From NCBI GenBank assembly GCA_951406725.2, contig OX597815.1:75702001-75766000 (forward strand): a stretch of 64,000 nucleotides of DNA. The letters run 5' to 3'. Made by a program: the position numbers and the translations under genes. The first letter of the stretch is position 1. Each line of letters starts with the position of its first letter. The notes under the pieces were generated by a model, which did no database searches, was not told the origin of the DNA, and saw only the letters and a list, made by a program, of their open reading frames with translations. Below are positions 45,403 to 64,000 of the stretch, piece after piece. This DNA is from Octopus vulgaris. Its lineage: Eukaryota.

Positions 45403-45628
45403 TAGATAAATAGATAGATAGATAGATAGATAGATAGATAGATAGATAGATAGATAGATAGATAGATAGATAGATAGATAGATAGATAGATAGATAGATA
45501 GATAGATAGATAGATAGATAGATAGATAGATAGATAGATAGATAGATAGATAGATAGATAGATAGATAGATAGATAGATAGATAGATAGATAGATAGATA
45601 GATAGATAGATAGATAGATAGATAGATA
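45403..45628. repeat. (GATA)n microsatellite abutting the 3' end of Tx1 copy 1
   Basis: Tetranucleotide run ending ...GATA|ACTTTC. Confidence 0.95.
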
Positions 45629-45942
45629 ACTTTCTTTCTTTCTTTCTTTTATTAGCCACACAGGGCTGAATACAGAGGGGACAAATACAAATGCAGAGCT
45701 TTTCTTTTCGAGGGTGGAAAAAAATAAAAATGTAAGATTGCGATCAAAAGGGATCGAGAGGAGGAAAAAAAAAGGAAAAAAAGAAAATCGTGTATCACAG
45801 AAATAATGGTGTAAACATTGATATAACAAGATTGGGTTCATCCGTGGGAAGAAAAGCCTACAGAAAAGACCACGGGAACCCCAGTCAGGGAGGAAATAAA
45901 CACATGAGGTCAAAAATGCTCTCTTTCTTTCTTTTTTACGAT

Positions 45943-48900
45943 CTACAGGATCATGCTCAAAATGGTTTCGTTACTAGCACGCACCATCTTTGCAACATTC
46001 ACCCATCTTTTATTGAATCTTTCGCGAGACAAAACTTCCCTCTCCATTCTCACCTTCCTTTTCAAGTGGTACTTGAAAAAGTTGATGAGCGAATGGCCAG
46101 AGAGGTAAGTGTTTGTCTCTAATCCTTTCGCTCGAGTCCACCACACACATTCTTTCACCATGGCCACCAGTACGATGAAAACTGCCTTGCCTTCCCGGTT
46201 GAGGGAAGGGGGCGGAGCAATTCTCACGATAGACTCGGCCGATAGGCGGATTCGTCCCACACGTGACAGCAGCCGTTCGGCATAAGCCCACAGGTCGGAA
46301 ATGGTTGGACATTGCACGAGTGCGTGCAGAACGGTTTCGTCGCTCTGACCGCATCTCGGGCAAGTCGGTCCAGTGTGTCTGGAACCGTGTCTGTAGAGCT
46401 TATCCCGAACAGGTAATGCTTCTCGATAGCACTGCCAGGCCAGGGATCTTTGGTGATTGTTCATAGGTCCCGGCCCGAAAGTTGTCCTGAACAGGCGGGT
46501 CAGGTGTTCCTCGTCGACGCCCAGACTCTGCCCGAGTTCGTCGTCGCACCTCCCCTCCACTAATCCTCTATAGAATGCCTTTGTTGTGATGGAGTCGCAC
46601 AAGTTCGATCCCGGACGGCAGAGTTGCTTGAGAGCAACGCGACACTCACGGTGCCATTCGCCTAGCCTCGGTCTCTGCTTGATCCATGACTGTAGTTCGT
46701 CCAAGGAGACGAGCTGCGGGAAAGCGCGCCGCACAAAAGGCGACCACCCCTGTTCACCGTTGTCTATGAAGCGCCGGAGATGTCGCAGTCTCAGCGCATG
46801 TCTGCGCATCATCAACCACGGCATGCCCAGCCCTCCATTTAGCGGGTGTTGGCAGCAAATGGATCGCCTGACCATCGGAACGTTTCCCTTCCACAAGAAG
46901 CGGAAGAGTATGCGTTCCAGTTTGGTGATGGTAGGGTCGGGACAAGGCACGACGGTCAGACGGTACTCGATGACGGATGCGATGTACGCGTTCGCCACCT
47001 CCGCCCGACCTTTTAGGGATAGCTTTCTCTCAGTCCATTTCTGGGTGAGAGTAGCCACCCTAGTCGTTATCTCGCCCCAGTTCTTCTCCATTTGGAGGTC
47101 CGGACCGAACCAGACCCCGAGCAATTTAACCGGTCCGTCCGTCCAGCGTCCCACGATGGAGACGCTGTTGGACGGCATGGGCTTGCTTCTCCAGGTGCCG
47201 AGCCGCAAGCCCACTGACTTTTCCCGGTTAATTTTTGCTCCCGTTACCGCTTCGTATTCTTTCAGTGTCTCGCCGACCAGCTCGATGTGCTCGTAGCTCG
47301 ACACTATGACGGTGACGTCATCCGCGTATGCAGACACGCTCCTCCCGCATCCCAGCTCTCGTGGGATGCCCCTCAGCGTCGCCAGTTTCCGCAGTAGTGG
47401 CTCAAGAGTCAGTACATACAGCAGCGATGAGAGGGGGCATCCTTGACGAACCGAACGCATGATGTTAAAAGGTCTGGATAGATGACCATTTACGCGAACT
47501 ACTGAGCGGATGCCGCTGTATAAGGCAGCGATCCAACTGCGGAAAACTGGACCGAAACCAGCCGCTTTGAGGACAGCCTCCAAGTAGTGATGGTCTACCC
47601 TATCGAAGGCTTTTGATTGATCCAAATTGATCAGCGCCCCACCCATGCCAGGATTTTTAACTACCCTGTCTATGATGTAGCGCATCAGATGGAGGTTGTC
47701 ATGAATACTTCTACCCGGCACGGCGCATGTTTGCGCCTTGTCGATTAGTTTCTTGATGACAAGCGCCAACCTCTCGGCTAACACCTTGGCCAAAATTTTC
47801 AAATCTGCGTTGAGCAGAGTGATGGGCCTGAAATTATCTATGACGTCCCCCTTGTTTGGGTCTTTCTTGATCAGTGCCACTGCTCCTCGCTTTACAAAAG
47901 CAGTGAATATGTTCTGCTGCCAGTTGCAGTAGACAGCTGCCAAGACGCCTCCAAACAAGTCTGGCATATGAAAATAAAATTCGTAGGGCAGACCATCCAA
48001 GCCTGGTGACTTGTCTCTCGCGCAGCCTACCATCGCATCCTGTACGTCCGCAGCTGTGATAGGCTTTTCACAAGACTCCACCTCCCTTGCTGAGAGTCGT
48101 GGCAAGGCATGCAGGTAGGCACTAAAGTCCACTCTGCTTTCTGACTCACCACTTGTCCCAAACAGTTGGGTGAAGTGTTGTTGAAAAACCCCACACATCC
48201 TTTTAGGCTCGAGTAATTCGCGCCCCTGTTCATCTATAAGAGACTTGATGGTGGCTCTGTTGCCTCGTTGCGTCTCCACCACTCGGGCCTCTTGGGCGGC
48301 TCCAACTCCTTCGTTCCTCAGAGCACGCATCCTAGCTCTGACAACGCATCCCTCGTGTTTGGCGTTGAGGTGTTGGTCGAGGGCCAATCTCGCCGCCAGT
48401 ACGTTGGACGCGATGCCAGTTCTAAGTGCCTCTTCTAAAACCTTAACTAATTCTCCCTCTACTCTATTTCGGTCTAATGCTAGGGCTCTACTGTATCTGA
48501 CTGATTCTGCTTTAATCGCTTTTTTAGGGAATACCACCATCTGTTGTTGATGATGGTACCCGTCAAAGCTCTCTTAACTAATGTGCTGATCCGGTCCCTG
48601 TAAACCTGTCGTGCTGTAAAAGACGCGTTCAGTTTCCAGTAACCAGGACCCTGCCTATGTGTCTTATCTAAGTCAAGTGTACAAGTCACAAACTTGTGAT
48701 CTGTGTAACTGACTATATGAAATTGTGGACAACCTACACTATTTTTATCTATTGTCCTACAGAATACTCTATCTAAGTATGATCTGGACGACCCGATGCG
48801 GTTACTCCATGTCCACATTGGCACATTCGGGTGGTCCAGTCGGTACCTGTCAGACAGTTGGAAACGTCTGAGCAGGTCTTTGAGGCATTTGCATCCCCTT

Positions 48901-63161: not shown

Positions 63162-63382
63162 TTTGGAAATAAAATGGCTAAATGAAACCACGAAGGCTAT
63201 GAGAATTTTTCTTTTAAATTTTGCCCACAAGGGGCAAAATTTTGTGCCGATATTTATCAAAGGTTTACAGTGGATGTTGTTGTACAACTTTTAAGCAAAA
63301 AATGTTTGTCAATATACACTTTTAAATAGTCAAAATAAATGATTACCTTCGGAGCCGAAAAGACATCACATCCGTCAGTCAG

Positions 63383-64000
63383 AGATAGATAGAATAGATA
63401 GATAGATAGATAGATAGATAGATAGATAGATAGATAGATAGATAGATAGATAGATAGATAGATAGATAGATAGATAGATAGATAGATAGATAGATAGATA
63501 GATAGATAGATAGATAGATAGATAGATAGATAGATAGATAGATAGATAGATAGATAGATAGATAGATAGATAGATAGATAGATAGATAGATAGATAGATA
63601 GATAGATAGATAGATAGATAGATAGATAGATAGATAGATAGATAGATAGATAGATAGATAGATAGATAGATAGATAGATAGATAGATAGATAGATAGATA
63701 GATAGATAGATAGATAGATAGATAGATAGATAGATAGATAGATAGATAGATAGATAGATAGATAGATAGATAGATAGATAGATAGATAGATAGATAGATA
63801 GATAGATAGATAGATAGATAGATAGATAGATAGATAGATAGATAGATAGATAGATAGATAGATAGATAGATAGATAGATAGATAGATAGATAGATAGATA
63901 GATAGATAGATAGATAGATAGATAGATAGATAGATAGATAGATAGATAGATAGATAGATAGATAGATAGATAGATAGATAGATAGATAGATAGATAGATA
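63383..64000. repeat. Long (GATA)n tract running off the end of the window (at least 600 bp)
   Basis: Near-perfect tetranucleotide run starting immediately at the 5' end of copy 3. Confidence 0.97.

Follow-up and report, generated by a model that had tools for sequence, protein, structure and literature searches.

A young, likely Tx1-clade LINE of Octopus vulgaris found in (TATC)n/(GATA)n microsatellites in a single orientation

Insertion into simple repeats is known for several groups of non-LTR retrotransposons. Among APE-type LINEs, the sections of PMC4494074 consulted describe Tx1 families in TC, TTC, TTCC and TTTC microsatellites, namely Kibi in (TC)n and Koshi in (TTC)n, both from teleosts, and crocodilian Tx1 in (TTCC)n/(TTTC)n; figure 3 of that article gives the targets of further Tx1 families, and a family is regarded there as target-specific when more than 20% of its flanks are of one type. 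Togen, which is NeSL-related and inserts into (TG)n, and some HERO families are likewise microsatellite-specific, according to the excerpts of PMC4640811 used here. The R1-clade elements SART and TRAS insert into the telomeric TTAGG repeat at a fixed site and in a fixed orientation, and swapping their endonuclease alters specificity (PMC7265360, in the passages cited). In the portions of these sources that we draw on, the endonuclease is the main target determinant in Tx1L and TRAS/SART (PMC4494074, PMC1950540, PMC7265360), and its beta-hairpin loop has been tied to target choice in L1 and Tx1L (PMC1950540). In coleoids, L1-Tx1 repeats have expanded, and the part of PMC8967140 consulted mentions no target.

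The window analysed here is a 64,000-nucleotide stretch of the O. vulgaris genome (assembly GCA_951406725.2, contig OX597815.1, positions 75,702,001 to 75,766,000). The genome searched comprised 2.8 Gb in 227 contigs, which we name C1, C2 and so on, the window lying on C2. A sequence-only reading of the window had proposed three near-identical elements on one strand with (GATA)n on either side of each, and alignment together with TRF bore this out. All three copies lie on the minus strand and share 99.47–99.55% pairwise identity: copy 1 (45629..51776), a full-length element by alignment and ORF list; copy 2 (51880..57097), which is 5'-truncated; and copy 3 (57254..63382), again full-length. 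Read on the plus strand, they are separated and bounded by a TRF-defined (GATA)57 tract, the target downstream of the copy 1 3' end (45402..45628), a spacer of a (GA)-variant plus (GATA)24 between the copy 1 5' end and the copy 2 3' end (51777..51879), a (GATA)39 spacer (57097..57253) and, on the 5' side of copy 3, a TRF-defined (GATA)154 tract (63383..64000). The last tract stops about 12 bases beyond the window (C2:75766012), and the next 29 kb past the window held no further element copy. Two other points of the first reading were confirmed by alignment: copy 2 begins within ORF1 at a direct junction with (TATC)n, and the 3' junctions of all three copies fall in one repeat phase (...GATA|ACTTTC, 3/3). 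On the sense strand, the 3' end of each copy in the window runs from AATAAA through a short AG-rich stretch into (TATC)n, the end of copy 1 being longer by three extra AAAG units.

The element, which we call family A, has an L1-group layout, with an ORF1 and an ORF2 that carries an N-terminal APE domain, an RT domain and a C-terminal Cys domain. Among the three window copies, ORF2 is intact in copy 2 only (1145 aa, 52181..55618, minus strand), where Pfam recognised an APE endonuclease (residues 6-222, PF03372), an RT (508-756, PF00078) and a zf-RVT domain (978-1031, PF13966); a copy on C20 encodes an ORF2 protein identical to it. In copy 1, the loss of 1 nt from a homopolymer near 48526 splits ORF2, and in copy 3 a lesion near 59507 shifts its frame. 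The APE catalytic residues N8, E37, Y112, D141, N143, T189, D202, D226 and H227 are all kept, a structure model of the endonuclease (pLDDT 93) found its best structural match in L1 EN (TM 0.80), and the best PDB match of ORF2 as a whole was L1 ORF2p. ORF1 of copy 1 translates into 634 aa (49651..51555, minus strand), compared with 712 aa in a copy elsewhere in the genome that is free of the homopolymer frameshift; it is Thr/Asn-rich and had no match in a Pfam search. A gag-like CCHC knuckle in ORF1 is a feature of the Tx1 clade, and a CX2CX4HX4C knuckle is read straight from the translation here. The 3' UTR of copy 1 (45629..45942, minus strand) terminates with a short hairpin and AATAAA, its last ~45 nt being of a type common to the families B–E described below and to an abundant SINE. 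An 11-bp stem forms a predicted hairpin in the 5' UTR (51610..51636, and again at 63216-63242, minus strand; folding z -2.0 versus shuffles), and is similar at its core to the hairpin at the 3' end of the related SINE. With the exception of this hairpin, RNA folding of the 3' and 5' ends was no better than that of shuffles, and an Rfam scan of 45300-52300 gave three matches, all under the gathering score, and no ribozyme. Lone copies of the SINE were seen beside TATC or GATA at other loci.

Protein comparison makes membership of the Tx1 clade likely. That assignment, made originally from the window, stood in so far as ORF2 scores nearer to Xenopus Tx1L (P14381, 323 bits) than to human L1 ORF2p (210 bits, Tx1L versus L1 giving 263), whereas the RT tree of 33 rows held no L1 outgroup. 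In this tree families A–C fall among Argonauta and unnamed proteins and away from vertebrate Tx1, on a branch (support 100/100) that includes none of the fish and frog rows. The closest named protein comes from Argonauta hians, with 70% identity across the RT region; clusters of homologs with an RT identity near 50% were unnamed, and a search of a protein-cluster atlas returned generic RT/APE clusters only. Among elements, Tx1L of Xenopus laevis is the best named relative and has the same ORF2 layout, but its target is the Tx1D transposon rather than (TATC)n, and its hairpin loop has 11 residues (PMC1950540, in the section cited), as against 9 between the T and S anchors here. The fish and frog Tx1 proteins, including Tetraodon Q76IM5, show only 28–31% ORF2 identity to the octopus family. 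Judged by these sequences, family A is placed outside the Kibi/Koshi lineage, as the (TC)n/(TTC)n target is replaced by (TATC)n and there is no clustering with teleost Tx1 proteins, Kibi and Koshi themselves being unnamed among the tree rows. Relative to Kibi, Koshi and crocodilian Tx1, the present system is distinguished by its (TATC)n/(GATA)n target, a sister family in (ATT)n and a cephalopod host. SART and TRAS differ from it in clade, in their poly(A) tail and in their telomeric target, and Togen and HERO in using a restriction-like endonuclease where the family described here has an APE.

We read family A as a young L1-group LINE, likely of the Tx1 clade, that enters (TATC)n/(GATA)n tracts already in place and keeps to one orientation, likely through an APE nick of the GATA strand, and give this reading a probability of roughly 0.75. 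A 27-mer from the family-A 3' end had 294 exact matches genome-wide, 221 of which continue exactly with TTATCTATCTATC. The remaining 73 ends lack the exact 13-nt continuation; among 104 family-A ends examined, such misses were mostly tract variants further out, and the first 6 nt of the continuation were matched in 99 of the 104, as well as in 54/57 family-B ends. For the 5' side we took all 41 family-A matches on contigs C3–C6, chosen by coordinate, of which 40 had their 5' end in view. Same-sense (TATC)n adjoined the 5' end of all 18 full-length copies and of 18/22 truncated ones (two of these with 7-12 extra bases), giving 36/40 junctions in total, while a TATC-rich upstream 40-mer, the criterion applied to 265 kb of background, was found at 1,122 of 528,160 strand-positions (0.21%). 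Three of the 22 truncated copies (L125, L143 and L150) had no TATC at the 5' junction, and in a fourth, L137, an inverted GATA stretch came after the 5' TATC tract; one C2 copy has the opposite orientation within its GATA tract. When all fetched loci were counted, leaving out 45 of 178 3' ends whose 5' end was out of view, at least three TATC units occurred within 30 nt at 91/106 junctions classed as truncated (family A 44/53, B 38/42, C 2/2, D 7/9). Manual reading assigned the 15 misses to about six tracing failures or uncertain cases, three degenerate tracts, two inverted tracts and four true exceptions. Set beside the threshold of more than 20% in PMC4494074, flanks of this one type account for 36/40 5' junctions and 221/294 3' ends. 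Flanks examined across the genome support what had been proposed from the window alone, that family A targets existing (TATC)n/(GATA)n tracts and does so in a single orientation.

It is very improbable that TATC is a mere 3' tail made by the element and that the two-sided flanks in the window come from the tandem arrangement. Head-to-tail arrays would indeed turn the tail of one copy into the 5' flank of the next, and the three truncated copies lacking 5' TATC fit such a tail, but solitary truncated copies, around which no second element was detected (L116, L126 and L146), adjoin TATC, the outermost ends of arrays adjoin it too, and tract variants are duplicated across the element. The lone truncated copies and the variant duplications largely refute a tail as the only source of TATC.

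The insertion of family A into an existing tract was visible in the junctions themselves. A variant-bearing stretch was common to both ends in 11 of 105 junction pairs, compared with a mean of 2.8 and a maximum of 8 in 300 shuffles. Clean target-site duplications measured 12, 14, 16 and 17-19 nt, longer junction matches of 25-44 nt may be due to chance in periodic tracts, and at L126 a duplication of ~17 nt, identified by eye, extends from the tract edge into unique DNA. The presence of tract variants in target-site duplications of 12-19 nt indicated that the tract predates the insertion. Microhomology at 29 5' junctions averaged 1.28 nt versus 0.63 expected, an approximately 2-fold excess; 22 of the 40 C3–C6 copies were 5'-truncated, and one copy (L119) showed a 5' inversion. 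The target-site duplications, the microhomology and the 5' inversion are marks of target-primed reverse transcription into an existing tract.

The family is also young, as first suggested: of 15 aligned copies, nine, drawn from five contigs, show 0-3 substitutions between them in 5-6 kb. The target is unchanged in older subfamilies that have other 5' UTR/ORF1 regions. The identical ORF2 proteins and the 0-1 substitutions between copies on different contigs make the families look recently active. At least half of the ORF2 words were recovered in 20 of 24 listed public runs (two organism labels, 10 studies), and the runs listed included no RNA data set that would bear on expression.

Related families share the tracts. 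The ORF2s of families B and C are intact and 83% and 81% identical to that of A, respectively, and both families end in (TATC)n, as does family D, which is known from truncated copies only. Counted by exact 3' 30-mers, family B numbers 5,376 copies or more, and 4,169 of these 5,376 ends are followed by ATATCTATC. Families A–D interleave in same-sense mixed arrays, one of which spans more than 40 kb at C1:60.40-60.44 Mb, with others on C8, C17, C20 and C23. Family E came to light when the C-termini of two outside relatives were used as queries; its ORF2 is 72% identical to that of A, it has a like 3' hairpin with AATAAA, its copies end in (ATT)n, and its arrays have a ~5.87-kb period. A family-E 26-mer gave 354 matches. 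Among the first 30 on C1, all 30 3' ends run into (ATT)n, and (ATT)n was present at the 5' end in 8 of 10 copies truncated within 1.5 kb. In a score-selected set, only about half of the truncated copies lay next to (ATT)n at the 5' end, so that E may be less strict. RT identity is 87-90% among A, B and C and 82% between A and E, while the endonucleases of the TATC families A, B and C are 82% identical to one another and 67% identical to that of E. The alignment has 45 E-specific endonuclease columns, and the changes cluster in loops other than the beta-hairpin loop, which hardly differs among A, B, C and E. The SINE with a related 3' end is far more abundant (86,814 exact tail matches). Its 3' flank at 30 loci started with AGGTA in 19 and with TATC in none, and often lay within another SINE copy. 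The 3' hairpin was rejected as target determinant, since a SINE with a similar hairpin was not next to TATC at 30/30 loci.

An insertion by family A could proceed as follows. ORF2p would bind the 3' end of its own RNA, and the endonuclease would nick the GATA strand, where reverse transcription would be primed, a few terminal RNA bases perhaps pairing with the primer. The opposite strand would be cut ~12-19 nt away, creating a short target-site duplication, and an incomplete cDNA would join the upstream TATC via 1-3 nt of microhomology. Because each insertion leaves target on either side, families A–D would keep entering the same tracts and so build same-sense mixed arrays, some of which may be enlarged further by recombination or duplication through the repeats. 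The constant 3' phase alone is no proof of a fixed nick: a few RNA bases annealed to the primer could give the same phase and would mask the exact nick position in the junctions. Where a tract variant 5-7 nt away from the end of the element recurs on the 5' side as part of the duplication, the RNA-derived part would be limited to ~4-6 nt or less.

These duplicated variants also bear on an alternative that we regard as unlikely, in which the targeting is real but stems mainly from RNA-DNA pairing, (UAUC)n-ended read-through transcripts annealing to the GATA strand after an endonuclease of loose specificity has nicked it. With TATC behind every copy, read-through RNA would carry TATC, and the TATC and ATT families have the same hairpin loop and, between A and E, an RT that is 82% identical; but in the cases above RNA supplies at most ~4-6 nt, and it is the endonuclease that diverges in E (67% to A, against 82% among A, B and C, with the 45 E-specific columns). 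The hairpin loop as cause of the choice between TATC and ATT was rejected on account of its near identity in both. Returning to targeting by the APE, the near-identical loop in A, B, C and E suggests, from alignment, that the determinant likely lies outside the hairpin loop or is partly RNA pairing.

Microsatellite-specific LINEs were already known; what is new here, within the literature searched, is the GATA target. The search, which covered openly accessible articles, found no GATA- or TATC-specific Tx1 family, and none that targets ATT. Kojima reportedly described further Tx1 families, one of them in ATT microsatellites. We put forward, tentatively and with the odds leaning against it, an undescribed and still active octopod Tx1-like radiation that splits microsatellites among its members, with (TATC)n going to A–D, (ATT)n to E and GGTAT to an unfound partner of the 87,000-copy SINE, with a small number of endonuclease loops other than the canonical hairpin responsible for switching the target. 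If this is true, A and E would form a natural pair closer than any other known to us for mapping how an APE endonuclease reads repeats, and could serve as a point of departure for directing gene insertion to microsatellites. As sisters with 82% identical RTs, 67% identical endonucleases and different repeats, they make APE specificity beyond the hairpin loop testable by domain or loop swaps. The families account for arrays of several kilobases at the GATA tracts of this genome, and caution is warranted since insertions can disrupt GATA microsatellite markers and assemblies in the host animal.

The history of the array in the window is a separate question from targeting. The ORF2 of copy 1 contains a complex lesion (47896..47917, minus strand) whose left half is common to copy 3 only, the half being positioned at ~47903 in copy 1 and ~59507 in copy 3, and the exact lesion 22-mer occurs in copies 1 and 3 only in the 2.8-Gb genome. 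The lesion of copy 1 is chimaera-like, with the left half of copy 3 and the common right half, and elsewhere copy 1 has the common sequence, one substitution away from C20 copies. The private differences ascribed earlier to the copies were found in part: copy 3 has four private substitutions within its first 500 nt, but copies 1 and 3 share half of the ORF2 lesion. With a genome-unique lesion in both, it is improbable that each arose as a clean insertion independent of the other, and gene conversion, local duplication or assembly polishing is the most likely source of the shared lesion. In public contigs from four runs, which probably represent other individuals, none bridged the copy 1 lesion, and the loose ends were of the common type.

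We consider it not far short of an even chance that the window array, though not the targeting, is partly a product of local duplication, gene conversion or an assembly or polishing artefact instead of three insertions. The confinement of the lesion 22-mer to copies 1 and 3 and the chimaera-like lesion of copy 1 fit this, as do the homopolymer frameshifts that are frequent among near-identical copies. The two copies nevertheless have different junctions at both ends and are set apart by the four substitutions near the 5' end; copy 2, truncated at a point of its own and free of the lesion, is marked as a separate insertion event; and like arrays exist on C1, C8, C17, C20 and C23. Of the sequence-only view that the element inserted repeatedly into one tract, the independent truncated insertion of copy 2 stands, whereas copies 1 and 3 share their unique lesion and other arrays hold duplicates. 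Arrays elsewhere contain copies with identical junctions, with six truncated duplicates, indicating that duplication adds to repeated insertion.

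Insertion into simple repeats extended to a sister family (family E), whose ORF2 was 72% identical to that of the window's young L1-group, likely Tx1-clade LINE (family A) and whose insertion sites were (ATT)n (loci L261-L310). Copies of family E formed tandem arrays with a period of ~5.87 kb at C4:93.80-93.84 Mb and on contigs C47 and C50, the C50 array comprising at least 10 units, and an intact 1144-aa ORF2 was retained in many of the array units.

Among the families residing in (TATC)n/(GATA)n tracts, copies of A, B and C were intermingled in a >40-kb array at C1:60,396,000-60,440,000 (L064-L068), where the GATA spacers reached up to 180 pure units and several truncated B copies were duplicated with identical junctions. 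Pure TATC runs located 3′ of the element ends had a median length of 16 units and a maximum of 417 (n = 168), compared to 11-34 units for 13 tracts in 265 kb of background sequence. Long TATC tracts may be the preferred targets of these elements, or they may have expanded after insertion. For one family A copy, the GATA repeats on both sides ran in reversed sense (L109, C2:14,248,835), and another carried an inverted TATC/GATA tract at its 5′ end (L137, C5:89,714,019).

The first ~60 nt of the element (51715-51776 and 63320-63382 in the window) were conserved between family A, family C and the older A subfamilies, and the remaining 5′ UTR and ORF1 differed among them. This conserved 5′ end is a candidate internal promoter; it had no match in Rfam.

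The 3′ end type of these LINEs was common to an abundant SINE of ~270 bp with a head that appeared tRNA-like by eye (loci L171-L200), present in the window at 32728 (minus strand) and 41208 (plus strand) and represented by 86,814 exact tail matches in the genome. No LINE partner of this SINE was found. Its copies were associated with TSD-like repeats of 11-17 nt, preferred GGTAT-like insertion sites and were frequently nested in one another at a spacing of 184 bp. The core of the SINE 3′ hairpin also recurred as the core of a hairpin in the LINE 5′ UTR (51610-51636 and 63216-63242).

At a further family A locus (L144, C6:57.68 Mb), ~760 bp of ORF1 was present as a fourfold internal tandem repeat. 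The part of the window unrelated to the element contained stop-free frames of 229-352 codons at 15054-15764, 17099-17803, 17929-18618 and 25694-26752.
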